Below are positions 1 to 20,994 of a stretch of 22,185 bases of DNA, one piece after another. The DNA is taken from NCBI GenBank assembly GCA_030765125.1, contig JAVCDD010000229.1:1-22185 (forward strand). The letters run 5' to 3'. The stretch's first letter is position 1; every line of letters starts with the position of its first letter. This stretch comes from Candidatus Hatepunaea meridiana. GTDB taxonomy: Bacteria; Electryoneota; AABM5-125-24; Hatepunaeales; Hatepunaeaceae. The notes beneath the pieces are model-generated. The model did not search any database and was not told the DNA's origin. It saw only the letters and a list, made by a program, of their open reading frames with translations. A program made the position numbers and the translations under genes.

Positions 1-294
1 CCCGGGTCGCTTTATGAAACATTCCGACCGGATAAGGCAAAGTGGCTATGGGAGAGATTTGAGTTTGTTTATACTCCGAAGCATGGGAGTTGGTTAAACA
101 TGGCTGAGATAGAATTGAACGTTATTACGGGACAGTGTCTGAATCGAAGGATTGACGATATTGAAGTTGTTAGGAAAGAGGTACATGCATGGCAAGAATC
201 CAGAAACAATAAAAATGCAAAGGTTAATTGGCAGTTCACAACTAAAGATGCTCGTATAAAATTGTCTCGACTTTATCCGACAATTGATGGTTGA
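1..294 (+). CDS. IS630-family (Tc1/mariner superfamily) transposase, C-terminal fragment; 5' end lies outside the window
   Basis: Frame 1 is open from nt 1. It reads PGSLYETFRPDKAKWLWERFEFVYTPKHGSWLNMAEIELNVITGQCLNRRIDDIEVVRKEVHAWQESRNN...VNWQFTTKDARIKLSRLYPTIDG, with a TGA stop at 292..294. The TPKHGSWLNMAEIE and FTT.DARIKL.RLYP motifs are the characteristic C-terminus of IS630-family transposases as I remember them. Confidence 0.75.
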   Translation, partial: PGSLYETFRPDKAKWLWERFEFVYTPKHGSWLNMAEIELNVITGQCLNRRIDDIEVVRKEVHAWQESRNNKNAKVNWQFTTKDARIKLSRLYPTIDG

Positions 295-350
295 CGTGAC
301 ACTAGACGCGGATTAGCAATAATTCTGAATCAAATATTACCTCCAAAAAG
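1..350 (+). mobile_element. right-hand portion of an IS630-family insertion sequence; the right terminal inverted repeat cannot be pinned down without the left end
   Basis: The transposase tail is followed by about 55 bp before homology to the effector-like gene family resumes near 352. A TA-containing junction is expected for IS630 but was not resolved. Confidence 0.45.
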
Positions 351-387
351 TAGAAATGACCTTCAGGATTTTAGCCAACCTGAAGGA

Positions 388-1017
388 ATGCACCCAGGAG
401 GTAATCATCATCATTACAGTTGCTATTTAACGACGCAGGATTTACCAGAGGATAGCAGTGGAACCGAAATCTGGTGGAATAACAGGATTACTGATTCAAT
501 CATTCCAACCATACAGCAAATCGTTGATCAACATAACTCATCTGGCAACTATAGAGGTCGTGACGCAGCCTGGATACAGCTCAGGTCGGGATTCAGATGC
601 CCAATAAGGAATAAAAGTTCACAAGTTAAAGGTGCAAATAACAGTCCGCATTTAATGGGCGCAGCCGTTGATCACAAAATTTTGTGGGATAGTCAAGATC
701 TTAACATTGACGCCGATCGAAGACGTCTTTCCAAAATAACCTATCAGATATTTTTTAAATATGATAGCCTGCTTTTTCAAGGTGGCTATCTCTATGGTGT
801 AAGAATTAATAGTGATGGAACAGCAGTTAATTCAGGCTCTTCAAGGCTACGGGATAATCGTTTCTGGAACAAGGATGGTCAAAGGCGTTATACATATCCC
901 CCTAACCCAACTGAAGTCCGGCATTTGTGGTATGTTTGGAGCGCCGGAGATACTACAAAGGTAGTGATGACCCGTGGACACAGTGATTGGTTTCCCAACA
1001 AGAAAAGGAGAAGATAG
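388..1017 (+). pseudogene. 5'-truncated paralog of the 1956..3659 gene, retaining only the C-terminal LAS/M15-like zinc-peptidase domain. The frame is open from 295 and homology starts near 352.
   Basis: MHPGGNHHHYS...SGFRCPIRNKSSQVKGANNSPHLMGAAVDH...TRGHSDW aligns with residues ~390-586 of the 586-aa ORF (GMHPSGIHHHYS...SGYRCPIKNSNLGGAGGSAHMFGSAIDY...RAHTDIR). The N-terminal ~390 codons are replaced by the IS630 element. The stop at 1015..1017 lies 8 nt before the P1 start. Confidence 0.6.
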
Positions 1018-1025
1018 GAGAAATA

Positions 1026-1883
1026 ATGAAAAGAACATTAGCAATTGTCGTAATAATTCTATCCATGTTTTCAACTAATGCTTTCGCCCAGGAAACGCCT
1101 TTGGACACAATAGTAGTCTGGTTTAGCGATTCGCTGAATCAGAATAGACAGGTAAGCGCGTTCTTTACTATCATAGAATCCCACAATTATCATTTCACTG
1201 GGAAAATGGTCGAAGTTAAACCGGAATATGATTCTTCGAAAGTGCGCGACGCATTTGAAGTTTTCGTCAGATCAATCTCTATTAACGCCCCCGTTTATCA
1301 CCCTTTGGATTTCATTGCCTCACAACATCTGGCGACGCCGCCTGTCGCAGACGATACGCTCGGACAAATTGCGCTGGAGAATTGGGATTCACCGGACATT
1401 CTTGACATGGATCTAAGTCTGTACGTTAACTGGGGTTTTACATCCGATCTCTATGAAATAGCGGATATTTTATATGAACCTCAGGGAATAGGGTACTACT
1501 GTGATGTCTGGAACGAGATGGGTATCGGTTATTTTGAGTATATAGAAGATCAACTGGAAGCCGATTCAACCGAATATATGGGTATCTGGAAATGCTCACA
1601 ATATCTGGCTCGATGCGTTGATAAGGATACTACTATTGAGACGAAAGCACTAGAAATACTGTTGGATTGTGCTGCTTCAATGTCACCAGCGCGTCATAGA
1701 GGTATTGTTGGAGAAGGTATCGTCCAGTTATACATGATTGGATACACGGAAGTCAAAAATACTATTGATTCTCTATTAGTCGACCCTGTTCCATCTGTTA
1801 AACGAAAAGTCGTGTGGGATATCCAGAACCAACAACGAAAGAACAACCTCCTGATGGAGTTTAACCTCGGTTCTGATGAATAA
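1026..1883 (+). CDS. secreted protein of unknown function, paralog P1 of a four-member family
   Basis: ATG at 1026 with GGAG at 1017..1020. Signal peptide MKRTLAIVVIILSMFSTNAFA|QE. The family-conserved blocks are present: TPLDT.VVWF.DSLNQ, FVRSI.INA, LSLYVNWGFT.DLY.IAD and the C-terminal QQRKNNLLMEFNLGSDE. Confidence 0.8.
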   Translation: MKRTLAIVVIILSMFSTNAFAQETPLDTIVVWFSDSLNQNRQVSAFFTIIESHNYHFTGKMVEVKPEYDSSKVRDAFEVFVRSISINAPVYHPLDFIASQHLATPPVADDTLGQIALENWDSPDILDMDLSLYVNWGFTSDLYEIADILYEPQGIGYYCDVWNEMGIGYFEYIEDQLEADSTEYMGIWKCSQYLARCVDKDTTIETKALEILLDCAASMSPARHRGIVGEGIVQLYMIGYTEVKNTIDSLLVDPVPSVKRKVVWDIQNQQRKNNLLMEFNLGSDE

Positions 1884-1903
1884 CTTTTCCTTTGAATTTT
1901 GAC

Positions 1904-1935
1904 AAAACCCACTCCGTTAATTCGGAGTGGGTTTT
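1904..1935 (+). terminator. rho-independent-type hairpin between P1 and the large gene (aaaacccactccg-ttaatt-cggagtgggtttt, followed by a T-rich stretch)
   Basis: 13-bp perfect stem, 6-nt loop, followed by tttcttctct. A copy at 6269..6300 carries compensatory substitutions. The ORF-track start at 1899 is a TTG read through this hairpin and is rejected. Confidence 0.55.
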
Positions 1936-1955
1936 CTTCTCTGACCGGTTACAAC

Positions 1956-3659
1956 ATGACTGGTGTATTTGCCCCCGACCCGATTGATGATTATCTTGTC
2001 AATGGAGCTTCGCTTGAGGCTTACGTTATGCTGAACGATAATAACGTCGGTTCCGATACTATTGCAGTTGATTCGCTGCCTCCACCAGAGATACGGGTAT
2101 ATTTCGCCAACAGCGGCTACGAGGAGGTTCCGAAGGGAGCATTCTTCTACGTCCACTGGGACAGCATCTGGGTGGTGGTGGACAGCTTGACCGATGCTCA
2201 AGTACCGACGGTAACATTGGAGTTCAGTGCAAATGGCAAGATCTTCGGTGCGGGAGACATTGCCTGGGATTCGGATTCATCTTACTGGAAAACAGGCGTA
2301 TCAATTGACGCTGACGCCATTCCGACATTGGAGGAGTGGTATATGTATCCATGCGACATCCTGCGAGCCCACGCCAATTACAGCGACACTCATACAACCG
2401 ATGAAATCCGCTGCTTCGACCTGGTCGTCAACACCGGCAGTCTGCGCAACTACAACGGCTCGCCTCCGGTAGTAATGGCTTTAAGGCGCGATGACGATGC
2501 AGATGTCAATGACAGTGGCTTTGTGGCTAATCGGGTTTTATATGACTGGAATGATAACTACTTCGGAGACAACCTGTTTCTGGAATTGCAGAGCTTTAAT
2601 GTTAATCCCGATACGCTCAAAGCCTGGTTTGAATCGGCACAATTCACACAATACTTGCTTGATCCGTTCAACAATAATCATGGCAGCGCTGCATTCTTCT
2701 CTTTGGACGATTTCAGCGGTGAACCATACAACTACCTGAGTGACCTGTTCCAATCATATACTGTTTGGATATCCCAGGGTTGGCCCACGATAGATACTCC
2801 TTCAACCTCAACCGGCAGGGCACACAGGCTCAGGTACAAGGTTACTATAACAGTCAACAATTGGCGCACGGACTGGTGGCCAAGCCAGAACTCATTTATC
2901 GTTTCCAGTCCGATGATTTACCAGAATCCGGTGGATATTTTGCGGCAGGAGTATTTTGATCTGTATGGGAAAATAAGAAGGATCGTTGGAGATGATACGA
3001 TTTTTTACGTTGATCCTGAATGGATTAGTCCTTTATTATCAAATAACTTTATTGACTATGATGTGCCGTTAGGGATGCATCCAAGCGGTATTCACCATCA
3101 CTACAGCAATCATGACAGTACTCAGAACCTCGCGCCTGCAGATAGTATTTTTGAAATCTGGTGTGATTCGAGCATAACAGTGCTAATTGATTGGATTGGA
3201 TGCTACGATTTCAGTGACATAGACCCAAACCTTGTTATAAACAGAACATTTACTTCAGGTTACAGGTGTCCAATCAAGAACTCTAATCTAGGTGGTGCAG
3301 GTGGGAGTGCACACATGTTTGGCAGCGCTATTGATTATAATTTGTACTGGAATGAGTTCAGACATACGAACGAAGATCATAGAAAGAAGCTTTCGAAAAT
3401 CTTTTACAAGGTCTATTCTAGCGCGAATTTACAGCCTGCCAACCATAATTATACTGGATTGTATGGTCAGAATGTCAACAATTGGGGAACCGAGATTATC
3501 TTTAAACGATCTTACTTCCTCAATGATACTCTCGGAAGAGTTGATGGCTATCCAGATCCAGGGAAAGCCTTAGAATGGCCATTACGGTACATTTCAGGAA
3601 ATGATACGATCATTGTTTGTTATACAAGAGCTCACACAGATATTCGTCATCGAAGATAA
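1956..3659 (+). CDS. large (567-aa) protein with no signal peptide. The N-terminal ~390 aa are unknown. The C-terminus is a LAS-family zinc peptidase domain of peptidase M15 / DUF882 (MepK/YcbK-like or VanX/VanY-like) type. Candidate peptidoglycan-hydrolase effector.
   Basis: The first ATG after the hairpin is at 1956; the N-terminus is not hydrophobic. The C-terminus carries SGYRCPIKNSNLGGAGGSAHMFGSAIDY (the SxHxxGxAxD zinc-ligand motif) and a distal YTRAHTDIRHRR (the H.D.R motif of M15A/DUF882 enzymes). A truncated paralog lies at 388..1017. Confidence 0.7.
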   Translation: MTGVFAPDPIDDYLVNGASLEAYVMLNDNNVGSDTIAVDSLPPPEIRVYFANSGYEEVPKGAFFYVHWDSIWVVVDSLTDAQVPTVTLEFSANGKIFGAGDIAWDSDSSYWKTGVSIDADAIPTLEEWYMYPCDILRAHANYSDTHTTDEIRCFDLVVNTGSLRNYNGSPPVVMALRRDDDADVNDSGFVANRVLYDWNDNYFGDNLFLELQSFNVNPDTLKAWFESAQFTQYLLDPFNNNHGSAAFFSLDDFSGEPYNYLSDLFQSYTVWISQGWPTIDTPSTSTGRAHRLRYKVTITVNNWRTDWWPSQNSFIVSSPMIYQNPVDILRQEYFDLYGKIRRIVGDDTIFYVDPEWISPLLSNNFIDYDVPLGMHPSGIHHHYSNHDSTQNLAPADSIFEIWCDSSITVLIDWIGCYDFSDIDPNLVINRTFTSGYRCPIKNSNLGGAGGSAHMFGSAIDYNLYWNEFRHTNEDHRKKLSKIFYKVYSSANLQPANHNYTGLYGQNVNNWGTEIIFKRSYFLNDTLGRVDGYPDPGKALEWPLRYISGNDTIIVCYTRAHTDIRHRR

Positions 3660-3673
3660 TTTTGGAGATGAAA

Positions 3674-4504
3674 ATGAAGCAGTTCAAATTTTCGTTTTTA
3701 GTTCTATTAATGCCGCTAATGCTTGCTAATGCATCAGCTTGGCAAGATTCAATAGTTGTTATGTTTGACAGAACAAAAAACCAGTATACTCAAAGGTGGG
3801 CGTTCAGGACAATTTCAGAACTCACGCCAGCGTTTGTGAGACCGTTTGCAAATACGACCATAAAGGATGATTTTAACACAACCGATGTTAAAGCCGCCTT
3901 TGTTCGATTCGTTGAGTCAATTACCATAAACAAACCTGATCCGTACCCTCCCGATTTTGTTCCCTGTGCCTATCTTGATACTCCAGGAGATGATCGGGAC
4001 ATTGAGGGTATGATTGAGCTTCCTTATATTCTGAGTTTATGTGTCTCATGGAATATTGGTGGGAATCTATACACTATTGCTGATTCGCTATACATAGGGT
4101 ATAATCATTTGTTTCCCGTATATTGTTTTATCTGGAATCAAATGGATACCAGTTACTTCAATCACGTACTTACCCGAACTCAGACCGATTCAACTTTTGT
4201 GAATGGCGTTGGAATAGCGGAGGCGTACCTTTTGTACGGTGAGGATCCAAAGAAAGAGATGAAGAAAATTGCTCTTGATATCCTCGAAACGGGAGCGTTC
4301 TCGCCCTATTACGAAATCCGTCGTTGGACTGCTTATAGAATTGTGAAAGTATATACTGCAGGTTACACATCACTGTTTTCAAGTGTAAATACGTTATTGC
4401 ATGATTCAAGGCAACCCATCAGGTATGAAATCAACTACGAAATATCTAAACAACAGCGCAGAAACAACGCCCTGATGGAGTTTAACCTTGGTTCTGATGA
4501 ATAA
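3674..4504 (+). CDS. secreted protein, paralog P2. An alternative start at 3668 would add MK.
   Basis: GGAG at 3664..3667, so the ATG at 3674 has better spacing. Signal peptide MKQFKFSFLVLLMPLMLANASA|WQ. Conserved FVESITINKP, SLCVSWNIGGNLYTIADSLY and the C-terminal QQRRNNALMEFNLGSDE. Starts 15 nt after the stop of the large gene. Confidence 0.75.
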   Translation: MKQFKFSFLVLLMPLMLANASAWQDSIVVMFDRTKNQYTQRWAFRTISELTPAFVRPFANTTIKDDFNTTDVKAAFVRFVESITINKPDPYPPDFVPCAYLDTPGDDRDIEGMIELPYILSLCVSWNIGGNLYTIADSLYIGYNHLFPVYCFIWNQMDTSYFNHVLTRTQTDSTFVNGVGIAEAYLLYGEDPKKEMKKIALDILETGAFSPYYEIRRWTAYRIVKVYTAGYTSLFSSVNTLLHDSRQPIRYEINYEISKQQRRNNALMEFNLGSDE

Positions 4505-5369
4505 AGGTGTGAAATATATTGTCTTCATTCTGCTTGGGTTGGTGATGTTTGCTAATAGCGCTTTTGCACAAAGTACTCCTTTAGATACAGTTGTTGTCTG
4601 GTTCAACGATAGTCTAAATCAAGAAAAACAGGTTGGTGCATTCTACACAATTATTGTACAAGAGGACTATCATCGATCAACTGATATGGTTGAAGTAAGT
4701 CCAGAATATGATTCTACTAGAGTTCGTAATGCTTTCGAAAATTTTGTACGATCAATTACAATAAATGCTTACACTAGTTATCCTCCAGGATTTAAAGCTA
4801 GTTTATCATTAAACAATCGACCTGCGCCTGAAGATTCCGTTGGATTGCAGGAAGCTGAAGAATGGGATGTCCCTCATATATTGGATTATGTGCTAAGTTT
4901 ATACGTAAATTGGGGATTCACGACAGACCTCTATACAATTGCTGACTTGCTATATCAACCTCATGTAAATCGTATAGGCTATTACGCAATCATTTGGAAT
5001 GAATTAGGTATGGATTATTTCGAACACCTTGAAGATGAACAGGAATCCGATTCAACATTTTACAAAGGTATTTGGATTTGCTCCGAATACCTAACTCAAG
5101 CATACATAAAAGAAGATGACTTGGAAGAAAAAGCCCTTGATTTGCTAGCTGATCGAACACTATCCGGTGTCTCTTCAGTACAAAGAATGTACGCGGGTGC
5201 GAGAATGGTTGAGATCTATATGAAAGGTTATACAAATGTAAAAGCTTGCATAGATACCCTACTACAAGCTGATGATCAATACGTAAAACGCGAGGTTATA
5301 TGGGATATTCAAGAACAACAACGTAAAAACAATCTCCTGATGGAGTTCGACCTCGGTTCGGATGAATAG
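4497..5369 (+). CDS. secreted protein, paralog P3
   Basis: The ATG at 4497 sits inside the GATGAATAA that terminates P2, giving an 8-nt overlap. Signal peptide MNKGVKYIVFILLGLVMFANSAFA|QS. 60-70% identical to P1 over the N-terminal half. C-terminal QQRKNNLLMEFDLGSDE. Confidence 0.8.
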   Translation: MNKGVKYIVFILLGLVMFANSAFAQSTPLDTVVVWFNDSLNQEKQVGAFYTIIVQEDYHRSTDMVEVSPEYDSTRVRNAFENFVRSITINAYTSYPPGFKASLSLNNRPAPEDSVGLQEAEEWDVPHILDYVLSLYVNWGFTTDLYTIADLLYQPHVNRIGYYAIIWNELGMDYFEHLEDEQESDSTFYKGIWICSEYLTQAYIKEDDLEEKALDLLADRTLSGVSSVQRMYAGARMVEIYMKGYTNVKACIDTLLQADDQYVKREVIWDIQEQQRKNNLLMEFDLGSDE

Positions 5370-6247
5370 ATGTGTAAAATATATTGCCTTCATTCTGCTT
5401 GGGTTGATGATTTCGGTTTCACAAATTTATGCGGAAACTGTTCCGGTTGACACCGTAATCACCTGGTTCAACTCATATTGCGACCAAACCAAACAAGTGA
5501 AAGCGTTTTATACAATTGCAATACCGGTAAGAGAAACGGGAGTTTCTTATACTGGCAATAGTGTTTGTTATTGTCCATATCGAATGCTAGGCGTAAAAGC
5601 AATTTACGATACCAGCTCCGTAAAAGATGCCTTCAAAAAACTTCGTTCGTTCCATAACAATCGCTGATTGTACTTCAAGTTGCGACAGTGTTATTCTCTC
5701 GGAAGAGATTTACGGTCCACTACCTGGTGTTGATTATCAGGATTGGGAACCTAGTTACATCCAGAATTCAATATTGAGCCTTTACCTATGGTGGGAGATC
5801 ACTGATGATTTAAACGATATTGCCGACCATCTTTTTACTGGTTTGAATTACCTTGATGGTTATTACTCGTATCTGTGGGATAAGATTGGCACAAGTTATT
5901 TCGAACATGTTAAAACAAAAGTTCAAACCGATACAACATTTACTTTAGGATTGATGATTGCAGGCGCTTACCTCAAGAGCCCTGAAAATCAAATCGATTC
6001 TATGGCGAGTATTGCGGTCGATATTTTAAAAGCAGGTGTAGAATCTGATGTTCGGCAACTGCGCTCAACAACTTCATTTTTAATAGTCGATGCTTATCTA
6101 AAGGGACACGATGATCTGAAGAATGGGATAGATTCGCTATTGAATGACCCTTCGGCAACTACTCGGAGAAATGTATCTTATCAGATCGAAAGACAACAAC
6201 AGAGAAACAATCTCCTGATGGAGTTCGACCTCGGTTCGGGTGAATAG
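5362..6247 (+). pseudogene. secreted-protein paralog P4, disrupted by a +1 frameshift in an A6 run at 5635..5640. Also possible: a sequencing error or a slippage site.
   Basis: The ATG at 5362 again sits inside GATGAATAG of P3. Signal peptide MNRCVKYIAFILLGLMISVSQIYA|ET. The ORF track splits it into 5362..5667 and 5627..6247. Removing one A from ttcAAAAAActt restores DAFKNFVRSITIADC, matching FVRSI(S/T)INA in P1-P3. C-terminal QQQRNNLLMEFDLGSGE. Confidence 0.7.
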
Positions 6248-6440
6248 CCTTTCCTTTGTGTTTCAACCAAAGCCCGTTCCGTTAATTCGGAGCGGGTTTT
6301 CTTTTTGTACCAGTTACAACCTGACTGGTATATTTGCCCCCGACCCAAATGATGATTATCTTGTCAATGGAGCTTCGCTTGAGGCTTATGTTATGCTAAA
6401 CGATAATAACGTCGGTTCCGATACTATTTTAGTATGCTGC
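6248..6440 (+). repeat. ~185-bp direct repeat of 1884..2063 (~90% identity): the intergenic hairpin plus the first ~55 codons of the large gene. The start codon is changed to CTG.
   Basis: Aligned by eye. Identical stretches include gcccccgaccc, gatgattatcttgtcaatggagcttcgcttgaggcttayGTtatgct and aacgataataacgtcggttccgatactatt. Similarity is lost near 6430-6445, where a secretin fragment begins. Confidence 0.8.
6269..6300 (+). terminator. second copy of the intergenic hairpin (aaagcccgttccg-ttaatt-cggagcgggtttt, followed by ctttttg)
   Basis: Stem preserved relative to 1904..1935 through paired substitutions (ac>gt on the left arm, gt>gc on the right; one G-U wobble). Confidence 0.5.
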
Positions 6441-7138
6441 AGTTAAATGGTTTTAAAGAACTCGATTTTGGCAGTATAACGGCAGTTTTTAAATCGCTGG
6501 CAAATGATCAGATTGGCGAAATTATTGCCAGTCCGCAAATCACAGTTCAATCAAACAACGAAGGTCATATCCAGATAGGCAGCGATTTCTCTGTAAGTAC
6601 TAAGGATTATTCTGGTAACACTGTTACGCAATTTTTTTCCGCAGGTACAATTATTAATGTAAATCCACATATTTTTACATTGGATACAGTAACATTTATT
6701 CACCTTGATCTTGATGTCCAGAAAAGCAGTGCGTCCGCCAGCGATCTTGGTATTGAAGTAAAAAAATCATCCGCAAAAACTTCAATATTATTGCTCGATG
6801 GAGAGGAAACAATGATTGGGGGATTATATTCAAAAGAAAAAGCTCATTCCAGAGATGGTGTTCCTATTCTTAAGGACCTGCCGGGGTAGTTACTTGGATT
6901 GAAGTATCTGTTTGGTTATGAGACGGAGAGTATGATCTACAAAGAACTGATAATCATTCTGCGAGCAGATTTGGTGCCCACACTTGAAGAACGATTGAAG
7001 AATCGACTGAGTGATGCTAAGAAACAAAACATCCTGAAAAGCAGCATAGACAGATATAGAGAGGAAATGCGGAACTACGATGCGCAATTAAATAAGAACA
7101 AACTAAAAAACAATAAAACGAATCGGTTATACCCTTAG
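6434..7138 (+). pseudogene. secretin (GspD/PilQ family) C-terminal domain fragment. It lacks its N-terminal half and has an in-frame TAG at 6887..6889.
   Basis: SPQITVQSNNEGHIQIGSDFSV...LLLDGEETMIGGLYSKEKAHSRDGVPILKDLPG * LLGLKYLFGYETESMIYKELIIILRADLV matches the secretin motifs (S.P.I.T.NNQ.A.I.VG...DGET.VLGGLI....VP.LGDIP.LG.LF....EL.IFITP). Both ORF-track pieces (6434..6889 and 6899..7138) are in frame 2. The fragment starts exactly at the repeat breakpoint, and its 3' end runs into the MITE at 7123. Confidence 0.65.
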
Positions 7139-7328
7139 CTCAGCAATGTATAATCATTGTTAAAGCCCCAATGTCTCTAATATGCAAACCTATTACAAGT
7201 AGTGTGCGAGTCTTTCCAATATATTAGATGAAAGAGTCGATTTAATGATACCGGAGTAGTGAAGCTTGCTTCGCGTCACTACGCATAAGCAAGCTTATGC
7301 ACTCCGGCTGAGCTAAAGGCATAACCGA
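7123..7328. mobile_element. MITE-like element, copy 1 (206 bp), with 22-bp terminal inverted repeats TCGGTTATRCCYTTAGCTCAGC and flanking 9-bp direct repeats ATAAAACGA (7113..7121 and 7329..7337)
   Basis: Left end tcggttatacccttagctcagc. Right end gctgagctaaaggcataaccga, which is the reverse complement with 2 mismatches. An internal palindrome gaagcttgcttcgcg...cgcataagcaagctt. A second copy at 16106..16314 is ~93% identical. Confidence 0.65.
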
Positions 7329-7564
7329 ATAAAACGATTATTGTTCCTTAACACCGTGAGTAAAACCTGTTAATCCTGAACATATCCCTTCGAGAAATCC
7401 ATCTACGCGGTCTTTAGAATCAATCACTCTCTCGCGTGCATTTAAGAATTAATGACCAAAGACAGGTGTTAATGGGAGATTTAAACAAGGACACAGACAG
7501 GAATGCTGAAGATTATCTGGCTATGCTGTCAACCCCAGTCAGGCTATGCGGGAATACCTAATAT

Positions 7565-7638
7565 TGTCATTCCGGACTTGATCCAGAATCCACTATTAAC
7601 AACAACTTACTGGATTCCGGATCAAGTCCGGAATGACA
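7565..7638. repeat. 74-bp near-perfect palindrome (28-bp arms tgtcattccggacttgatccagaatcca / tggattccggatcaagtccggaatgaca, 18-nt centre), ~70 nt past the 3' end of the HK gene
   Basis: The arms are reverse complements with a single mismatch. Arm length, loop length and GTCATTCC...GGAATGAC termini match the palindromes at 21938..22010 and 22087..22159. Confidence 0.7.
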
Positions 7639-7706
7639 AGTTAGAGAAAAATCCTATACCTGTACATCCTGCTGTTGATTAACAGCCATCATCCTTTCGC
7701 ATTGAT

Positions 7707-10700
7707 TTACCCCCCGTCCAAAGCCTGCCTTACCTTTACAGCTATTTCCTTCGGGTGAAATGGCTTTTGAATGAATGATGTGCCATGTTCGAGAACTCCG
7801 TTATGCACAATTGCATTTTTTGTATAACCTGACATATACACCACCTTCAGATCAGACCATAACTCGCAAAGCTTTTCTACCAGCTCTTCTCCGCTCATAT
7901 TTGGCATAACCACATCAGTTAAAACGAGATCAACCTGCTTGTCAAGCTTCCGGCAAATATCATAAGCATCGTTTCCATCTATAGCTTCTAAAACTGTATA
8001 CCCCTGCATTTCCAAGATGTAACGAGTGTATTCACGCACTGCTTCTTGATCCTCGACGACCAGAATTGTTTCGCTTCCCTGGGGAATTTCATCTATCTCA
8101 GCTTTTCGATCAATCTTGCCGGCTTTTGCTTCAACCCTTGGCAGATAGAACTTGAACGTTGTTCCTGTTCCCTCTTCACTGTAAACATAAATGTGTCCAT
8201 TGCTCTGCTTGACGATTCCGAAAACGGTTGAAAGCCCAAGTCCTGTTCCTTTGCCTACTTCCTTTGTTGTGAAGAACGGCTCGTATATTTGCTTTTTCAC
8301 TTCCTTTGACATCCCACAGCCTGTATCGCTTACTGCGATCATTACATATTCACCGGGCACAACTTCGATATGATCCCGTGCATATTCCTCGCTCAGTGTA
8401 ACGTTTAAGGTTTCTAATGTCAACCTCCCACCTTTCTGCATTGCATCGCGGGCGTTCACCACGAGATTGACAATGACCTGCTCGACCTGCCCCGGATCAG
8501 CGTTTACCTGCCATAATCCCTTTGCAGGTATCGTTTTATAATCAATGTTCTCACCGATTAACCTGCGCAGCATCTTGTCTAAAGTCGAAATAATCCGATT
8601 AAGATCGAGGACTTTCGGCTCCAATGTCTGCTTGCGACTGAAAGCAAGCAATTGCCTTGTGAGATCCGCTGCGCTAAGAGCCGAATCTTGAATCGTCGTT
8701 ATTTTATCATAAAGCGGATCTCGTTTATTGAGCGACCTCAGAGCAACATCAGCATAACCGGAAATCACTGTAAGCAGGTTGTTAAAATCGTGCGCCACAC
8801 CACCTGCCAGGCGTCCTACTGATTCCATTTTCTGAGACTGGCGGAATTGATCCTCAAGGGACTTTTGTTCGGTGATATCGCGCGATATTTCTATCGCGGT
8901 CTTGGGGCGTCCATCCGCATATCTGCTTGCTGTACTGACAAGGCTCAATTGATATATTGTGTTGCCGTCTTTGTCAATCGTTTTCGCTTCATGAGAATGA
9001 ACCTTCCCGTCTGCGAAGACTTCTTGTATAATGCAATGCTTGCAGGGTTTGTCAAAACGATGATATACCTCGTAACACTTTTTCTCAGTCACATCTACAC
9101 CGAATGAATCCATAACAACTTCATTAGCCCATACGATATTATAATCTTCGTCTATTATACTCATATAATCGGGGATTGACTTGATGATACCGGATAATTT
9201 ATCCTCGCCTTTTTGTAAATTTTCTTCCGCACGTTTGTGTTCAATCGCTTTTGCCACTTGTGTTGACACAAATTCAATAATTTCCTTTTCACGCTCACCA
9301 ATAGCGCTCGAATCCGAATAGTCCTGAACTACCATCACACCGATTGTTTTGCCCTCAATAATAAGTGGTACTCCAAGCCAGATTTCAGACAGATCGCCAA
9401 AGATTTCGACTTCACCACAGCGTTCCAGTTCCTTTTGATCTTCTTTGTAGCACAGTTGTGATTCACTGGTTCTTACCACGTATTCGGTTATTCCTCTGCC
9501 GAACTTACGCGGTAGTAAAGTAACACCTTTTTCATCTGTGAAGTACGGAAAACTCAACAGTTCATTTTCCTCATCACATAAAGCGATAAAGAAATTATCC
9601 GCGGTCATTACATCCTTAATAATATCATGCACTGCTTTGTATAAATCATCGATGCTTTCAGAGCTTTCAACGGCTTGTGATATCCTATATAGTGAATCCT
9701 GCAGCTTCTCCGCCTGCTTGCGCTCTGTGATTTCTACGGTAAGGTCATCCGCTAGACTGAGTGCGGCAATCCGACTGTTTTTTTGATCCTCATAAGCTTT
9801 CTTCCGTTCCTCCTCCGCCTGCTTGCGCTCGGTGATGTCACTGTCTGCACCGCGGTACCCTAAAAGTTCACCGTTGGAGTCCAGAATCGGCAGACCATTG
9901 GTGGAAAGTACAACAATTCGCCCATCTTTGGTTTGCGCGAGATTCTCCAGATTAATGAATGATTGTTTCTTCTTGAATACCTCTAAGGCTACCGACTTTA
10001 AGGCATCGCGTCCCTCGACAGGATGAAGATCGTAGAAATGTTTCTTGCCTACAATTTCATCGGCCTTATAACCTAATACTTCCTCGACGACAGCGCTAAC
10101 ATGGGTGTAAAGCCCGTTGTGATCGACTTCCCAGATAATCTCCCGACTTGTTTTGGCAACCTGATCGAACCGTTCTTCGCTCATTCGCAGCGCCTCATCT
10201 GCCAGTTTACGGTCGGTTATTTCGCGTAAAACACCAGAATTACCAATGATGCTTCCAGAAGCATCTCTTACGATTCTGCTTCGATCTTCAACCCAATGGA
10301 CTTTACCCCAACTATCCAGGACGCGGAACTCACAGGGAATTTCTTCGCCAGTAGTCATCTTGTGTTCAAATTCCGCGATTACCCGTTCAACATCTTCTGG
10401 AAAGATAATCTCGATAAAACTTCCTTTAGTCATTATTTCTTCGGAGATGTAACCGTATAGGGAAACCTGGGGACTGATATGGACAATTTTACCGGCGGTA
10501 TCGGTGTAGTAGACAATATCTTCGATATTCTCAATAAGACTTCGGTATTTCTCCTCGCTGTCACGCAAGGCTTCTTCAGCCTGTTTGCGCTCGGTGATGT
10601 CTCGAATAACAACATGAATTATCTGTTTGTTTCCAAGCGTATATTTGCACGGAGTTGTTTCGGCTAAAAACACAGAACTGTCTTTCCTCACAAACTTTGT

Positions 10701-11825
10701 CTCAATACTTAACATATCTTTTTTCATTACATCAGCCAACACTTGGGCGGAATGTTTCAATTCTATCTCGGGATGCAATTCAAATACCTTCATTTCGAGC
10801 AGTTCTTTTTTTGAATAGCCAAACTTTTCGACTGTCTTATTATTGGCATCCAAGATATTCATATCCATATCATGGATAATAATCGAATCAGGTGAAAATT
10901 GATAAATCTGTCTGTATCTATCTTCATTTTCCTTTAGAGTTTCTTCTGCCTGTTTGCGTTTGGTGATGTCGTTAAGCGCTCCTACTATAGATACGGTCTT
11001 CCCATCAACAACAACCGGACTTTCGCGAACTTCAACCCATATTTTTCTCCCGTTTTTATGAAAGAGTTCCAGCTCGTATGACGGTTGTGGTTTGCCGGTT
11101 TCTATTGCTTTTAATGTTAGTTCAAATCCTTTTTCATTTATAGGATTGTCGGAAACGAGTTCCGTCCATTTAATTAATGCTTCATCTACTTCGTAACCGA
11201 TAATATCTTTAATCTGAGGACTCAGATAAGTTGGGATATGGTCCGGTGTATGAGAATAATATACGTTTGTACTATGTTCAAAGATGTTTCGCAACTTCTC
11301 TTCATTTTCCCTCAGCGCTTCCTCCTTATTCTTTCTGTCTGACAAATCAACGTCAATACAGAATAATATTGGATGTTTACCCGGAAGTTTAACCGCAGTA
11401 TGAATGGAATATACCGGCACAAGATGACCGCCTTTGTGTAAAAGATCCACCTCGCCGGGAGGTGCAAACTCGCCGGATTTCTCAATATACTTTCCTGTTT
11501 TCAGCGCCTTCTCAAATAGCGGCATAATATCATCAGGTATTATTAGATCTCCAAGATTCTGACCAAGCGCCTCCTCTGCAGTATAACCGTATACCTCTTC
11601 ACTTGCCTTATTCCAGTATAAAACGGTACCCTTCAAGTCATAACCTTGTATTGATACTCCTGGTACAAACTCCATAAGATTACGGAATCGCTCTTCGCTT
11701 TCTCTTAGAGCCTCCGTTGCCTGTTTGCGCTCGGTGATTTCACGCTCCAGTTCTTCATTTTTCCGAGTAAGTTCCGCTGTCCTTTCACGTACACTTGCTT
11801 CCAGCGACTCAATTTCCGATTTCAT
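7707..11825 (-). CDS. cytoplasmic hybrid sensor histidine kinase (1372 aa): N-terminal coiled coil, multiple PAS/PAC domains, a GAF-like domain, HisKA, HATPase_c and a C-terminal receiver domain
   Basis: Repeated PAS linkers DITERKQAEEALRESEE. H-box ESVGRLAGGVAHDFNNLL. G-boxes DTGCGMS and GTGLGLS. Receiver ILVVEDQEAV...LVLTDVVMPNMSGEEL...KVVYMSGYT. No hydrophobic segments. GAGGT 5 nt upstream of the ATG. Confidence 0.9.
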   Translation of the reverse strand: MKSEIESLEASVRERTAELTRKNEELEREITERKQATEALRESEERFRNLMEFVPGVSIQGYDLKGTVLYWNKASEEVYGYTAEEALGQNLGDLIIPDDIMPLFEKALKTGKYIEKSGEFAPPGEVDLLHKGGHLVPVYSIHTAVKLPGKHPILFCIDVDLSDRKNKEEALRENEEKLRNIFEHSTNVYYSHTPDHIPTYLSPQIKDIIGYEVDEALIKWTELVSDNPINEKGFELTLKAIETGKPQPSYELELFHKNGRKIWVEVRESPVVVDGKTVSIVGALNDITKRKQAEETLKENEDRYRQIYQFSPDSIIIHDMDMNILDANNKTVEKFGYSKKELLEMKVFELHPEIELKHSAQVLADVMKKDMLSIETKFVRKDSSVFLAETTPCKYTLGNKQIIHVVIRDITERKQAEEALRDSEEKYRSLIENIEDIVYYTDTAGKIVHISPQVSLYGYISEEIMTKGSFIEIIFPEDVERVIAEFEHKMTTGEEIPCEFRVLDSWGKVHWVEDRSRIVRDASGSIIGNSGVLREITDRKLADEALRMSEERFDQVAKTSREIIWEVDHNGLYTHVSAVVEEVLGYKADEIVGKKHFYDLHPVEGRDALKSVALEVFKKKQSFINLENLAQTKDGRIVVLSTNGLPILDSNGELLGYRGADSDITERKQAEEERKKAYEDQKNSRIAALSLADDLTVEITERKQAEKLQDSLYRISQAVESSESIDDLYKAVHDIIKDVMTADNFFIALCDEENELLSFPYFTDEKGVTLLPRKFGRGITEYVVRTSESQLCYKEDQKELERCGEVEIFGDLSEIWLGVPLIIEGKTIGVMVVQDYSDSSAIGEREKEIIEFVSTQVAKAIEHKRAEENLQKGEDKLSGIIKSIPDYMSIIDEDYNIVWANEVVMDSFGVDVTEKKCYEVYHRFDKPCKHCIIQEVFADGKVHSHEAKTIDKDGNTIYQLSLVSTASRYADGRPKTAIEISRDITEQKSLEDQFRQSQKMESVGRLAGGVAHDFNNLLTVISGYADVALRSLNKRDPLYDKITTIQDSALSAADLTRQLLAFSRKQTLEPKVLDLNRIISTLDKMLRRLIGENIDYKTIPAKGLWQVNADPGQVEQVIVNLVVNARDAMQKGGRLTLETLNVTLSEEYARDHIEVVPGEYVMIAVSDTGCGMSKEVKKQIYEPFFTTKEVGKGTGLGLSTVFGIVKQSNGHIYVYSEEGTGTTFKFYLPRVEAKAGKIDRKAEIDEIPQGSETILVVEDQEAVREYTRYILEMQGYTVLEAIDGNDAYDICRKLDKQVDLVLTDVVMPNMSGEELVEKLCELWSDLKVVYMSGYTKNAIVHNGVLEHGTSFIQKPFHPKEIAVKVRQALDGG

Positions 11826-11863
11826 TATAACCTCAATCTATCTTTTTTACTTTCTTACTTTCT

Positions 11864-12005
11864 ACCCTAATCCAGCGCTAAGAGTGCTGTCAGGTGCCCT
11901 CACCTGACAGATAAAGGGGAAATGATGCGTCGTGTGAGGGCACCCGACACCACTCCTTTAATTGTTGGAAATCCAGAATATACCTCCTTATCGCTGGATT
12001 AGGGT
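11864..12005. repeat. 142-bp intergenic element bounded by 14-bp inverted repeats ACCCTAATCCAGCG / CGCTGGATTAGGGT. It contains a perfect 10-bp-stem hairpin ctgtcaggtg-ccct-cacctgacag (11887..11910) and an alternative pairing partner gtgagggcacc (11934..11944).
   Basis: Seen directly. Flanked on both sides by ACTTTCT-type direct repeats. Lies between the stop of the 717-aa PAS gene and the start of the HK gene. Confidence 0.55.
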
Positions 12006-12014
12006 TTCTACTTT

Positions 12015-14168
12015 CTAACTTTCTTGCTCATCAATAGATGAATATTTCTTTGGCTGCCCGAGTTTCTCCAACAGCTCATTGACTTCGCGTTTCATTTCGA
12101 CGATGCGGTATTCCCTGCCCATAAAGAGCCTATTTGTTTTTTCGATTTCTTCCATTTGCTTTTTCAATGCCTCTTCTGATCGCTTGCGCTCAGTGATGTC
12201 AACAACGATTCCTCTAAATCCGATTGGATCGTTTTCACGCATAATAGGAGAGGAATAGATGATTACAGGAAATTTCGTTCCGTCTTTCCTTATGGCTGTG
12301 TATTCACCACCTCCTAATAGTTCTCCCTTTATTATCCTCGCAATATTTTCAGCTGCTCTTCTTCTGTCAACAGGAGCAACCATCTGCAGCGAGTCGATAC
12401 CCTTCGCGTAATCTTCGCTTGTGTACCCAAACCTTTCAAATCCAATCTGGCTGACAAATGTGAGGTTACCCTCCAAATCACATTCATAAATACACTCAGG
12501 GAAAAGTTCCGCCATATCTCTGAATCGACATTCGCTTTCCAGTAACGTCTTCTCCGCCCGTTTGCGTTCAGTGATATCTTCCCCTGAACTTAGTGTTCCT
12601 GAAATATTTCCTTTATCATCTACCAGAATAATATTATGCCACGCGATCAGCCGTTCTTCGCCTTCCACTGTTAAAATAGGATTTTCATAGTATGCTTCCG
12701 AATCTATATCACCTGCAGTCAAATCCGCATGAACGAATTTCATTTCTTCTCGCAATCTTTCGGGCAGAAAATTTTCTAACCAGTTCTTTCCAAGGATTTC
12801 CTCTTTCTCATAACCCAGAATCTCGCACCCTTTATTGTTTATCATCGTCACTACGCCATTATGATTGAGAGCCACGAACATCACACCTGCAATGTTTAAG
12901 TACGTCTGTGATTTACTCCTTTCTTCCCATAACGCTTCCTCTACTCTCTTACGCTCGGTGATGTCCCTTATGAAGGCTAAGACGGTGGGTTTCGCTTCAT
13001 AATCAGTCAAGGATGCATTTGCCTCAACTGGAAAAGTTGAACCATCTTTTCTGAGAAGCTCAAATTCATAGATATTAGGTACAGGTCTTCCCGCTAGACG
13101 ATCTTGATGTTTTTTCAAAACAAATTCTCTGGAATGCGGCGCAATAAAATCAATGAAGTTTTTATTAATCATTTCTTCAAGGGTGTAACCAACTAATTGA
13201 GCCCCTGCAGGGTTCACATACTTCAAAAGACCATCCTGAATTAAAATTATACAATCTTGGGAGCTCTCAACCAGACTGGAGTACTTCTTCTCGGATTCCT
13301 TCAGCTTTTCCTCCGCCCGTTTGCGATCTGTGATGTCACAAACAATAGACATAAACAACTTCTGTCCACTGGTTTTTAAAGGCACAATTGTTAACTCCAG
13401 AACAATCTTTGTACCATCTTTTCGCAATGCATCTCTCACAATGGGCATTTCAATGGGCTGATCAAGATTATTGTAAATCTGTAATCGACCATAGTGTTTT
13501 GCTTGTAAATCAGACGTTTTCATTGATAAGAGTTCTACGCGAGAGTAACCAAATAATTCGCATGCTTTATCACTGAAATCGATTATTTCTTGATTTTCAT
13601 TTTCCAACACTATTGCATCGCCCGCCTGTTCAAAAAGCGCCCGATAACGCTCCTCACCTATCAGCAGCGTTTCCTCAGTTTTTTTTCGTTCGGTGATGTC
13701 GCGTATGATGGCTGAAGCCCAGTATTTTTCTTTTATGCGAATCGGGGAAACTGCTATTTCTATCGGAAACTCGTTGCCGTCCTTGCGCATCGCGGTCAGT
13801 TCAACCACCTTACCGATGGCATTTCCATCTCCCGTTTTCTTGAATGTCTTGAATCCTTTCTTGAACTGAGCGCTATATTGTTTAGGCATAAGAATCTCGT
13901 GGACGTTCTGATCTGTCATTTCTTCATTGGTGTATCCGAAAATACGTTCCGCTGCCGGATTCCAGTACACGATGTTTCCGTCATCATCAATCAGGATCAC
14001 CGCATCAAGCGCCGAGGCACTGATAACGCGGAATTTCTCCTCACTTTCCTTCAGCAGCTCCTCCATCTGCTTGCGTTCGATTTCCGATCCTTCAAGTTCG
14101 GTAATCCGCTGACGCATCGCAGCTAACTCGTCAATTAGCTGCGCTTTGGTTTTGATTTGATCGTTCAT
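12015..14168 (-). CDS. multi-PAS-domain signalling protein (717 aa) with no recognisable output domain; the C-terminus is a coiled coil
   Basis: At least five PAS/PAC units separated by DITERK(K/R)xEEAL linkers. Ends KQMEEIEKTNRLFMGREYRIVEMKREVNELLEKLGQ, with no H-box or ATPase motifs. The first ~30 codons are identical to the ORF at 15279..15674. Confidence 0.85.
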   Translation of the reverse strand: MNDQIKTKAQLIDELAAMRQRITELEGSEIERKQMEELLKESEEKFRVISASALDAVILIDDDGNIVYWNPAAERIFGYTNEEMTDQNVHEILMPKQYSAQFKKGFKTFKKTGDGNAIGKVVELTAMRKDGNEFPIEIAVSPIRIKEKYWASAIIRDITERKKTEETLLIGEERYRALFEQAGDAIVLENENQEIIDFSDKACELFGYSRVELLSMKTSDLQAKHYGRLQIYNNLDQPIEMPIVRDALRKDGTKIVLELTIVPLKTSGQKLFMSIVCDITDRKRAEEKLKESEKKYSSLVESSQDCIILIQDGLLKYVNPAGAQLVGYTLEEMINKNFIDFIAPHSREFVLKKHQDRLAGRPVPNIYEFELLRKDGSTFPVEANASLTDYEAKPTVLAFIRDITERKRVEEALWEERSKSQTYLNIAGVMFVALNHNGVVTMINNKGCEILGYEKEEILGKNWLENFLPERLREEMKFVHADLTAGDIDSEAYYENPILTVEGEERLIAWHNIILVDDKGNISGTLSSGEDITERKRAEKTLLESECRFRDMAELFPECIYECDLEGNLTFVSQIGFERFGYTSEDYAKGIDSLQMVAPVDRRRAAENIARIIKGELLGGGEYTAIRKDGTKFPVIIYSSPIMRENDPIGFRGIVVDITERKRSEEALKKQMEEIEKTNRLFMGREYRIVEMKREVNELLEKLGQPKKYSSIDEQES

Positions 14169-14175
14169 TTTTATC
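14081..14175. repeat. ~95-bp direct repeat (1 mismatch) shared with 15587..15681, covering the start codon and first ~30 codons of two minus-strand PAS genes
   Basis: tttccgatcc(t/a)tcaagttcggtaatccgctgacgcatcgcagctaactcgtcaattagctgcgctttggttttgatttgatcgttcattttt is present at both sites. Confidence 0.85.
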
Positions 14176-14436
14176 TCTATTTAAATTGATTTGATATTGA
14201 ATCTCTACCACTTCATCCATATTATCATCAACAATGAGTATTCGTTTGGGTTCACTCATATAATATGTCCAATCGATAGAGAGAAGTGAGATGTAGGTGC
14301 TAAGTTGATTTTTCTGAAGTTACTGTAATATAGGCTGTTATTCTCAGATTTCAAAATCTGAGCTGACTATCCTTTCCAAATAGGTTCGGACTATCGGTTC
14401 AAGAAACACCTCATATCCTTTATCTATTTGAGGAAC

Positions 14437-14835
14437 TTAACTCAAGATTCCAAAGTAAAAAACAGCCCCCAAAGAGCTGTTTAAGTGATCAGCGTATACG
14501 TCGCCGGTATAACTCGAATCACGCGTGTGCATACGATAAGCGCTGATGTTATTATTCAGTTGATCTATTTCAGTGATCTCGTTCTGTATGACTGAATATG
14601 ATTCGTTAATCATACCTTCATCCACTTCGGTAAATATCATAGATCGATCATATACCCAGGTATTTCCAACTTCTAAGGGATAAATATAACCTGACTCTTC
14701 CGGCTCCATGTACTTCTCTGTGCAGGACATGAGTGAAAAGCTAAAGACTAACAGGATGCAGAGTATAACTTTCGTTGCCGTCCCTGTATTAGTTGTAGTA
14801 TGATTCAATATACGCTTCCATAACTGCAAAAACAA
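14437..14835 (-). CDS. hypothetical small lipoprotein or secreted protein
   Basis: N-terminal hydrophobic stretch KVILCILLVFSFSLMSC followed by TEK, which could be a lipobox. No family recognised. A weak AT-rich hairpin ctcagatttTGAAatctgag lies downstream at ~14348..14367. Confidence 0.4.
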   Translation of the reverse strand: MFLQLWKRILNHTTTNTGTATKVILCILLVFSFSLMSCTEKYMEPEESGYIYPLEVGNTWVYDRSMIFTEVDEGMINESYSVIQNEITEIDQLNNNISAYRMHTRDSSYTGDVYADHLNSSLGAVFYFGILS

Positions 14836-15278
14836 TTACGAATTAATAGTGTCGGGATATAGGCACTGTGTCGATACCTGTCCGGCTACCGACAGATTTG
14901 TCCGCCTTACGGCGGATTCACCCCCCCCTTGATTCCACCCATGCAAGTTTGGGGAGATGACGTGCAGATATTTGGGATTTCACACAAGCTAAGAGGGGAA
15001 AATGTTTGAGAGGCGCAAGTGCCGTCGTGCTCCAGAGATACGCTTTATTACTTTCTCCCTTTCCCACTTTCTTACTTGCTCACTTGCTTTTTCCGTCACA
15101 CTTCGTCACATTTCCGTCACCCCCTCTAACCCTTACCCAGCTTGGCTTTCCGGCGATTGTGTGACGAAGTGACGCTGGATTCACTACTACTCGCGCGCGA
15201 TGTACAACAAATTATGTCAAAATGCAACTCGTAATGCCGTAAAAATACCATACTTACGAATCCGACACACAGCCTTCC

Positions 15279-15674
15279 TCAATTCCAGGAGCCATTCCTA
15301 TGCCGAAAACGATATTCATGATAATGCTGACCATTCTTGAAAATCTGACCAATATTTGCAAATACACGCGGCGCGTCTTCCGGATGTATATGTTTTGCCC
15401 AGAAACCAGAAGACAAGAATTCTTCCGGATCATACCCTATTAAGGTTTTTATATTCTCGCTTATGTATGTTGCGTCGAAATCACCCGTTGCTTCACAGGT
15501 ATAAATCATGGCAGGACTCGCTTCAAGCAAACGCTGTAGTTGATTGTGTGCGTTTAAAAGCGCTTCCTCCGCTTGCTTGCGTTTGGTTTCCGATCCATCA
15601 AGTTCGGTAATCCGCTGACGCATCGCAGCTAACTCGTCAATTAGCTGCGCTTTGGTTTTGATTTGATCGTTCAT
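15279..15674 (-). pseudogene. truncated PAS-domain paralog (131 aa, a single incomplete PAS domain ending ...YRFRHRNGSWN*)
   Basis: The N-terminus MNDQIKTKAQLIDELAAMRQRITEL is identical to the 717-aa protein. The PAS core ends prematurely, where the conserved continuation after RHRNGSW is missing. GC-rich noncoding DNA follows. Confidence 0.55.
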
Positions 15675-20992: not shown

Positions 20993-20994
20993 AA

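Follow-up and report, generated by a model that had tools for sequence, protein, structure and literature searches.

Type VI secretion system (T6SS) effectors that attack peptidoglycan with an M15-type domain, encoded beside immunity proteins with signal peptides, are known (PMC6833914, PMC12135965), and arrays of orphan immunity genes, the acquired interbacterial defense (AID) and recombinase-associated AID (rAID) clusters, are known in Bacteroidales (10.1101/471110). The locus described here can be set beside both. It lies in a 22,185-nucleotide (nt) contig, JAVCDD010000229.1 (the window hereafter, meaning that whole stretch), of a metagenome-assembled genome (MAG) of Candidatus Hatepunaea meridiana, a taxon of Electryoneota in the FCB (Fibrobacteres-Chlorobi-Bacteroidetes) group that was described from Ace Lake, Antarctica (PMC9324843). 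In the window, three copies of a gene for an M15/LAS zinc peptidase (E) alternate with four genes for signal-peptide proteins of about 290 amino acids (aa) (P). We consider, at a probability of about one half, that E and P are a Sec-exported peptidoglycan-peptidase toxin and its periplasmic immunity proteins, and that the window holds a decayed, mostly immunity-only array of them. The kind of system is already known; the families appear to be undescribed.

Sec-dependent polymorphic toxins with orphan C-terminal cassettes include Neisseria MafB/MafI and Bacillus WapA/WapI, and orphan arrays also occur with Rhs and CdiA. Bacteriocins and bacteriolysins that target peptidoglycan include colicin M with Cmi, pesticin with Pim, lysostaphin, and zoocin A. 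The array to be compared with them reads as follows, from left to right.

1 to 305, forward strand: right terminus of an insertion sequence of the IS630 family, in which the transposase C-terminus runs to 294 and the terminal inverted repeat to near 305.
306 to 1017, forward strand: E0', the 3' part of an E gene that an IS630 insertion has left, with its first ATG at 388; it carries the pre-domain and the M15/LAS peptidase domain.
1026 to 1883, forward strand: P1 (P0003), a P protein of 285 aa with a Sec signal; AGGAG lies upstream of the ATG.
1904 to 1945, forward strand: terminator-like hairpin 1, a 13-bp stem (1904-1916/1923-1935) and then a T-rich tail; folding energy (dG) -22.3 kcal/mol, z -4.4.
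1956 to 3659, forward strand: E1, a 567-codon copy of E, open but 5'-truncated, without a signal peptide; the M15/LAS domain lies at about 3237-3656.
3668 to 4504, forward strand: P2, of the P family and with a signal peptide; its gene begins 8 nt past the E1 stop.
4497 to 5369, forward strand: P3, a P-family signal-peptide protein whose ATG overlaps the P2 stop (GATGAATAA).
5362 to 6247, forward strand: P4, a frameshifted P gene in two open reading frames (ORFs), 5362-5667 and 5627-6247; its ATG overlaps the P3 stop.
6269 to 6310, forward strand: terminator-like hairpin 2 (fold at 6269-6300), also found in the terminator scan; dG -21.4 kcal/mol, z -5.6.
6321 to 6433, forward strand: E stub, about 38 codons from the start of a truncated copy of the E1 type, in which CTG replaces ATG.
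6434 to 7138, forward strand: remnant of a PilQ/GspD-like secretin gene, with the C-terminal secretin domain only and the N-terminal domains missing, interrupted at 6887-6898.

An earlier note on this DNA, made from the sequence alone, had described a repeated E-P module, and the ORF coordinates it gave are correct. Its order of elements also holds, with the corrections that P4 is frameshifted, that the stub begins with CTG, and that the stub runs into a secretin remnant. The same note took E1 to be full length, and in this it was mistaken. Four long E homologs, P0009 (1327 aa), P0010 (1311 aa), P0012 (1285 aa), and P0013 (1266 aa), align with E1 over their last 560 or so residues only. E1 thus corresponds to the C-terminal 43% or so of full-length family members (residues of about 756-1321 in P0009 and P0010) and covers only positions 763-1308 of a 1314-position profile that we built from the four, with about 760 codons missing; profile positions 1-762 have no match anywhere in the window. 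Homology between E1 and its long relatives extends to its ATG, and the terminator hairpin of P1 accounts for the 19 in-frame codons that precede it. The ATG itself lies about 10 nt past the T-tract of this terminator, so that there is no room for a promoter, and the start codon is not conserved, since the 90%-identical stub has CTG there. E0' (P0014) matched E1 with an E value of 8.2e-13 when 1.8 billion representative proteins were searched exhaustively with phmmer, a search that returned nine hits in all; it covers positions 1088-1308 of the profile, and its homology begins at the IS630 end, near nucleotide 306. On these grounds all three copies of E in the window are remnants.

Intact E consists of a Sec signal peptide, an apparently beta-rich region of about 1,070 aa, and a C-terminal LAS/M15 zinc peptidase. 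All four full-length homologs start with a classical Sec signal peptide, whereas E1 and E0' have neither a charged n-region nor a strong h-region (best 10-residue Kyte-Doolittle means of 1.13 and 0.72, respectively; charge of the n-region and this mean served as our measure of a signal peptide). E1 is without a signal peptide because it is a 5'-truncated remnant, and this is not a property of the family. It had been claimed that the large protein has no Sec signal, which is true of E1 and E0' and false of the family (four of four full-length homologs), and that a peptidase unable to reach its own periplasm, next to periplasm-targeted paralogs, is typical of effectors of the T6SS or contact-dependent type. 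That argument fails, because E1 is truncated and the intact family is Sec-exported, an outcome that the note itself had listed as speaking against it. The earlier observation is confirmed with corrections and its interpretation only in part: E-P does resemble a toxin/immunity pair, but no link to T6SS or CDI was found.

P genes lie within about 15 nt downstream of E in all four full-length loci, as confirmed by a hidden Markov model of the P family. There is one P gene after P0009 (L006/L013), P0010 (L017), and P0013 (L018), and there are three in tandem, for proteins of 295, 292, and 298 aa, after P0012 (L014/L015/L016). Since every full-length E on a readable contig has P directly downstream, the combination of E with one to three P genes is both real and conserved as a unit. 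Counting the HEAT gene of a more distant clade discussed below, P or HEAT lies directly 3' of the E-type module in these four loci, in the window, and in L007, L008, and L012. The neighbors of the full-length loci are type I and other restriction-modification genes, Fic, RhuM, and a split Transposase_mut gene, and AlpA-like small genes lie upstream of E in L017. A tail-fiber/head-fiber-like gene (PF11133, 3.6e-12; positions 8045-9394 on the reverse strand of L014) stands in a divergent operon beside E in L014 and L015, together with DUF5659 and endonuclease VII-like genes, and a gp25-type baseplate wedge gene (4868-5227, reverse strand) converges on the E-P pair in L018. E-P loci sit in variable, mobile DNA, and there are hints that some of the cassettes border phage-tail-like gene sets. 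The island features claimed earlier for the window, namely an insertion sequence, truncated effectors, and divergent paralogs, are likewise borne out, as IS630 cuts E0', and truncated E and P without E also occur elsewhere.

The C-terminal domain of E carries the H/D/H triad of the LAS/M15 zinc peptidases, as had been proposed. H453, D460, and H560 of E1 are invariant in an alignment of five family C-termini and are present in E0'. E1 and E0' have in common the motif SG[YF]RCP...S.H..G.A.D...H, in which S434-G-Y-R-C-P of E1 is invariant across the family, and the zinc-site segment of E1 aligns with Streptomyces albus DD-carboxypeptidase (1LBU) at H154/D161, which we take to be zinc ligands there. 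Against the PF08291 cut-off of 23.2 bits, E1 (25.4) and P0013 (41.0) pass and E0' (19.6) and P0009 (18.0) fall below, with an alignment that spans only the motif region of about 35 residues. The model of E1 gave weak but coherent structural matches at residues of about 400-565 to LysECD7, the L-Ala-D-Glu peptidases of RB49 and T5, ChiX, VldE, LysB4, and VanX. E resembles the M15/LAS enzymes (1LBU, VanX/VanY, MepK, phage T5-type L-Ala-D-Glu peptidases, and ChiX) in these matches, in the SxHxxGxAxD...H motif, and in the PF08291 score of E1. It differs in the gap of about 100 residues between the Asp and the last His of the triad, in a family-specific pre-domain (motifs TGR..L.Y, QD..ILRQEY.D, and G.HHH), and in its context of more than 1,000 aa. 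The last zinc-ligand His stands only 6-11 residues from the C-terminal end of E (7 in E1).

The P proteins were described in the earlier note as paralogs that all carry signal peptides, and this is right apart from the frameshift that breaks P4. P1-P4 are 34-55% identical (E values of 1e-33 to 1e-93 in a database of 5.8 billion proteins), and 19 positions are invariant across 12 members of the family. All P proteins have K/R before the h-region, which reaches a best 10-residue Kyte-Doolittle mean of 2.7-3.8, and this measure sets them cleanly apart from E1 and E0'. The predicted model of P is a HEAT-like alpha-solenoid of stacked helical-hairpin repeats, and the C-terminus ends in a conserved acidic tail (..LMEF..E). 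The P paralogs in the window differ among themselves (34-55% identity) as much as they differ from P proteins encoded by other organisms, and E0' is closer to the foreign C-termini of P0009, P0010, and P0011 (40-42%) than to that of E1 (34%). The array therefore appears to gather old or horizontally acquired lineages and not recent duplicates. P4 carries a +1 frameshift in an A6 run at 5635-5640, and deletion of one A restores an intact P of 294 aa. The frameshift is probably real and not an assembly error, since the same broken product, a fragment of 206 aa (P0007), is called in several independent sources; slippage or phase variation is also possible. The nearest relative of P4 is P0004 (48%), encoded in L001.

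In L001, two tightly spaced, co-oriented P genes (9157-10855) stand inside an operon for polysaccharide biosynthesis, with Bac_transf on one side and WecG on the other; they are 67% identical to each other and 45-48% identical to P4, and there is no E-like ORF in the 20.8 kb. A single P without an adjacent E lies in L002 between a TPR protein and a protein with the C-terminal domain (CTD) of the type IX secretion system (T9SS). P genes on their own fit the orphan immunity genes that the earlier note had envisaged, and the same occurrence had been named there as a sign against its proposal. A word-indexed protein search with P3 and with a P profile found the family in three organisms only, and the same type of search with E1 returned E1 itself. 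A split-gene origin, in which P would be related to the missing N-terminal half of E, was rejected when BLASTP found no similarity.

Neither the carrier region of E (about 1,070 aa) nor the P family matches any model in Pfam, NCBIfam, PADLOC, or the PDB sequences, which agrees with the earlier impression that the N-terminal region of the large protein and P belong to unrecognized families. PHROGs gave weak endolysin-motif hits only, for the M15 motif. E-P is not a listed phage-defense system, as PADLOC returned no hits. The carrier, the pre-domain, and P thus appear to be undescribed in the libraries searched. A scan of genome contigs with the profile of the E C-terminus gave generic M15 matches only, in Gemmatimonadota-type MAGs.

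The junctions of the array are not artefacts of assembly, because they turn up again in assemblies from JGI, ENA, and Logan that are independent of this one. The IS630/E0'/P1 junction is found in two JGI contigs and in one contig each from ENA and Logan, and the P2/P3/P4 junctions are found in an ENA contig. The JGI contigs (L020 and L021) hold the whole IS630, with its HTH and DDE_3 ORFs, followed by E0' and P1. The right end of the element in the window matches NCBIfam transpos_IS630 (1.4e-12), and its ends can be compared as CTAGTGTCATGTCACG on the left versus CGTGACACTAG on the right.

Two terminator-like hairpins frame the second module and differ by a single compensatory change, A-U to G-C. 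Each belongs to a 166-nt block of hairpin and E start that is present twice at 90% identity (1903-2068 and 6268-6433); the loop motif is absent from the other E-P loci. Within this MAG the 5' part of E is more conserved (90% of nucleotides in the stub and 69% of amino acids in P0008) than the peptidase part (34-47%). P0008, on another contig (4.8 kb) of the same MAG, is an E fragment that is 69% identical to residues 78-275 of E1 and then diverges, and it may represent the missing half of E0, split by the IS, or one more decayed copy. Since P1 and E1 share a frame, read-through from the one to the other was considered, but two stops (TAA and TGA) lie in between, and the idea was rejected.

A metagenome scan revealed a distant clade that possesses the E C-terminal module, comprising L007, L008, and L012. 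The L008 protein (968 aa) encodes, in order, a signal peptide, CarboxypepD_reg, RHS/YD repeats, a Gly/Pro-rich linker, and the E C-terminal module. Residues 282-489 of E1 align with residues 760-919 of this protein (hhalign probability 98.1, E 6.8e-14), and the two share the TGR..L.Y and QD..LRQEY.D motifs and the M15 core. The RHS repeats of the L008/L012 clade match PF05593 (7.6e-8) and TIGR01643. The L008 carrier is followed by a 287-aa signal-peptide protein that matches Pfam HEAT_2, and the same set of genes occurs in L012, where one ORF encodes the RHS part and another the module. Past its HEAT gene L012 holds a second, truncated copy of the module (3744-4169) that starts at a TCTDNP junction, and the L007 contig begins at the same junction (1-240), which suggests that it is a repeated point of recombination or of assembly breaks. 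Two secreted carriers that are not related to each other share one module, each is followed by a gene for an exported helical-repeat protein, and truncated copies of the module lie downstream; together these features are the signature of polymorphic toxin/immunity loci.

The likeness to polymorphic toxins of the MafB, WapA, Rhs, and CdiA type extends to the signal peptide, the large carrier, the C-terminal toxin-like domain, and the adjacent downstream gene that is putatively protective. It includes 5'-truncated toxin fragments (E0', E1, the stub, and the second fragment in L012) followed by further putative protective genes, and the placement of one C-terminal module on two unrelated carriers, the E type and the RHS-repeat type of L008. 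By contrast, all known E C-termini are of one predicted fold (M15) and not a set of interchangeable toxin folds, and E diverges evenly, with no demarcation motif such as VENN or PxxxxDPxGL. The putative immunity protein is exported and not cytoplasmic, unlike those of polymorphic toxins, because the predicted target is periplasmic. Apart from the distant L008/L012 clade, no RHS/YD repeats were found in the E family proper. Of the marks of contact-dependent inhibition (CDI), namely the two-partner secretion (TPS) domain, FHA repeats, a VENN-type motif, and CdiB, full-length E shows none, having no Pfam hits beyond M15, and no Omp85/TpsB neighbor was seen.

With the peptidoglycan hydrolases of T6SS, such as Tae/Tai, Tge/Tgi, Tpe14 of Acinetobacter baumannii (which contains M15), and the M15-like WHIX effectors, E-P shares a gene for a cell-wall hydrolase domain beside a gene whose product has a signal peptide and would function in the periplasm, as well as arrays of immunity paralogs and orphan immunity genes. 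It differs from these systems in the Sec signal peptide of intact E, in the carrier and P that no library model matches, and in the lack of T6SS delivery markers or nearby genes. The earlier note had suggested a look near homologs for T6SS or other delivery loci, or for VgrG, PAAR, or Hcp genes. No Pfam or PADLOC match to VgrG, PAAR, Hcp, MIX, FIX, or WHIX was found in E, its homologs, or the ORFs of the window, nor was TPS or another delivery marker found there or beside homologs, where the convergent gp25-like gene in L018 is the sole contractile-system neighbor; the window has no genes of T6SS, CDI, or extracellular contractile injection systems. E bears no T9SS sorting domain (Por_Secre_tail type), its C-terminus being the peptidase domain itself.

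Bacteriocins and bacteriolysins resemble E as large secreted proteins with a wall-attacking C-terminal domain, and lysostaphin and zoocin A are also LAS-fold zinc peptidases; Cmi and Pim resemble P as periplasmic immunity proteins. However, colicins have no signal peptide and are released by lysis proteins, immunity to lysostaphin and zoocin operates via wall modification (FemABX-like enzymes) and not via a binding protein, and none is related to E in sequence beyond the LAS motif. The AID/rAID clusters (10.1101/471110) share with the window divergent immunity-like genes without a working cognate toxin, mobile DNA, a repeated intergenic sequence, and an FCB-group host. They differ in that the window array is short and has no XerD-like recombinase, and in that its toxin remnants are interleaved with P, whose protective role is putative.

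If the toxin/immunity reading is correct, E would be an exported toxin that cleaves peptidoglycan, bacteriolysin-like or polymorphic-toxin-like, and P proteins would wait in the periplasm to bind and block its peptidase domain. P would protect the producer and would also protect cells that have P only against the toxins of their neighbors. The anatomy, the truncations, the signal peptides, the conserved linkage of E and P, the zinc triad, and the P fold are established here; the toxicity of E, its binding by P, and any target outside the producer are what we infer. All copies of E in this genome are disabled, E0 being split by IS630 and E1 and the stub lacking the first 760 or so codons with the signal peptide, and three of the four P genes in the window are intact. 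For this reason the locus should work, if at all, mainly as an orphan-immunity array with toxin remnants. A bolder form of the hypothesis, which we advance more tentatively and at somewhat less than even odds, is that E-P is a new Sec-dependent antibacterial weapon of uncultured bacteria, in which the carrier, without known domains, takes a LAS/M15 peptidase into the periplasm of a competitor, HEAT-like P neutralizes it, perhaps by placing its acidic tail in the active site, which is of carboxypeptidase type, so as to imitate the substrate, and genomes collect divergent P genes as their own toxins decay.

Several points weigh against the toxin/immunity reading. No route for E across the outer membrane came to light, as no T9SS CTD, TpsB, or T6SS parts were found. 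Divergence among the full-length E homologs is even from end to end (27-39%), with no pattern of a conserved N-terminus and a swapped C-terminus, and the P genes in the polysaccharide operon of L001 could serve the envelope in a way that has nothing to do with immunity. For the HEAT_2 proteins of the RHS clade, homology to P was considered and rejected (hhalign probability of 1%). The structure model of E1 is poor outside the peptidase domain, with a predicted local distance difference test (pLDDT) score below 50 at residues 1-400. The family is also tiny, and the linkage statistics are thin because it is limited to a handful of metagenomic contigs. Identity of the E C-terminus correlates with that of the adjacent P (r = 0.59, 15 pairs), a figure confounded by phylogeny and not used as evidence.

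The alternative that survives best, although it is unlikely, is that E is a self-directed peptidase of cell-wall remodeling carried on mobile elements, with P proteins as its periplasmic regulators, inhibitors, or scaffolds, and that no other cell is targeted. NlpI-MepS and EnvC-amidase are analogous pairs of hydrolase and regulator. The Sec pathway takes both E and P to one compartment, HEAT-like solenoids serve generically as scaffolds for protein binding, full-length E diverges as an ordinary orthologous protein does, and P occurs inside an envelope-polysaccharide operon in L001. Yet nine hits in 1.8 billion representative proteins are a very sparse distribution for a housekeeping enzyme, and restriction-modification, transposase, and phage-like neighbors are equally unusual for one. 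Nor does such a role sit well with copies of E that are disrupted while P is kept, with divergent P paralogs in arrays, or with the same peptidase module fused to an RHS-repeat carrier.

It is considerably less probable that E-P is cargo serving a prophage, a tailocin, or another mobile element, by breaching the wall at entry or release or by superinfection exclusion, with P preventing premature lysis. The tail-fiber-like, DUF5659, and endonuclease VII-like genes beside E in L014/L015, the gp25 baseplate gene beside P in L018, the AlpA-like genes in L017, and the weak PHROG matches to an endolysin family all point in this direction. However, no relative of E or P was found in the 2.9 million viral contigs of IMG/VR, virion-associated lysins normally lack Sec signal peptides, and no complete phage structural module is visible around any locus, nor any phage gene in the window.

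Very improbable is the proposal of the earlier note, that E1 as it stands is a whole effector without a leader, which some machine of the contact-dependent or T6SS type, with its genes elsewhere, would deliver, and that P1-P4 provide periplasmic immunity to it, some as cognate and some as orphan proteins. An intact ORF of 567 codons that starts with ATG and lacks a signal peptide, P proteins targeted to the periplasm, the existence of M15-like T6SS effectors, and the gp25-like gene adjoining L018 would agree with it. It is contradicted by the restriction of E1 to profile positions 763-1308 with homology reaching the upstream terminator hairpin, by the CTG in the 90%-identical stub, by an ATG too near the terminator for a promoter, by the Sec signal peptides of all intact relatives, and by the absence of VgrG, PAAR, Hcp, MIX, WHIX, TPS, and Rhs-core markers from E and the window.

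That P acts in the export or assembly of envelope polysaccharide, with E beside it for local peptidoglycan remodeling by a trans-envelope machine of which the secretin remnant is the trace, is about equally improbable. The tandem P genes between Bac_transf and WecG in L001 and the secretin remnant abutting the array in the window would speak for it; against it, there are no polysaccharide or secretin genes near any of the four full-length E-P loci, and the secretin junction in the window is a deletion scar, fused to codon 38 or so of the E stub.

The secretin remnant is probably outside the E-P system. It matches PF00263 (4.3e-24), and PilQ/GspD models match it in part only; the stub joins it at 6433/6434, and this boundary looks like a deletion scar in a pseudogene-rich region. 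No secretin was seen beside E-P in the four full-length loci. Past the remnant, a non-coding gap holds nested inverted repeats (7123-7328), with 22-nt arms 162 nt apart around 21-nt arms at 7251-7307, which could form a structured RNA or be a miniature inverted-repeat transposable element (MITE)-like element; neither Rfam nor tRNA scanning of the window gave a match, these repeats included. An inverted repeat of 32 nt, almost perfect and with a loop of 12 nt (7564-7639; dG -51.6 kcal/mol, z -12.6), in single copy in the window, lies just 3' of the end of a hybrid histidine kinase gene on the reverse strand; it is long for a terminator and perhaps represents a palindromic repeat element. The remainder of the window encodes sensor kinases rich in PAS domains, an SLT transglycosylase, and a cluster of gas-vesicle genes, all on the reverse strand.

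7707 to 15674, reverse strand: a hybrid sensor kinase of 1372 aa with about six PAS domains, GAF, HisKA/HATPase, and a receiver domain, and beside it a PAS-only protein of 717 aa and a PAS fragment of 131 aa (15279-15674) that may be a pseudogene.
17136 to 21762, reverse strand: a gas-vesicle cluster with two GvpA-type genes, GvpK, GvpL/F, and a duplicated ArsA-type ATPase of 648 aa; a lytic transglycosylase with an SLT domain lies directly 3' of it.

The window offers a lesson for the annotation of fragmented MAGs, in that a leaderless effector can be a 5'-truncated remnant, and only full-length relatives reveal the truncation. Its direct value is as a pointer to the family, being itself a decayed copy. 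To our knowledge, interbacterial warfare has not been studied in Electryoneota. If the toxin/immunity reading is true, E-P would be a peptidoglycan-targeting antagonism system in this candidate phylum, with a carrier region and an immunity fold family that have no current database model and with a delivery route that is not T6SS, CDI, or T9SS. The profile models would then serve to annotate hypothetical proteins of about 1,300 aa and hypothetical exported proteins of about 290 aa in metagenomes.

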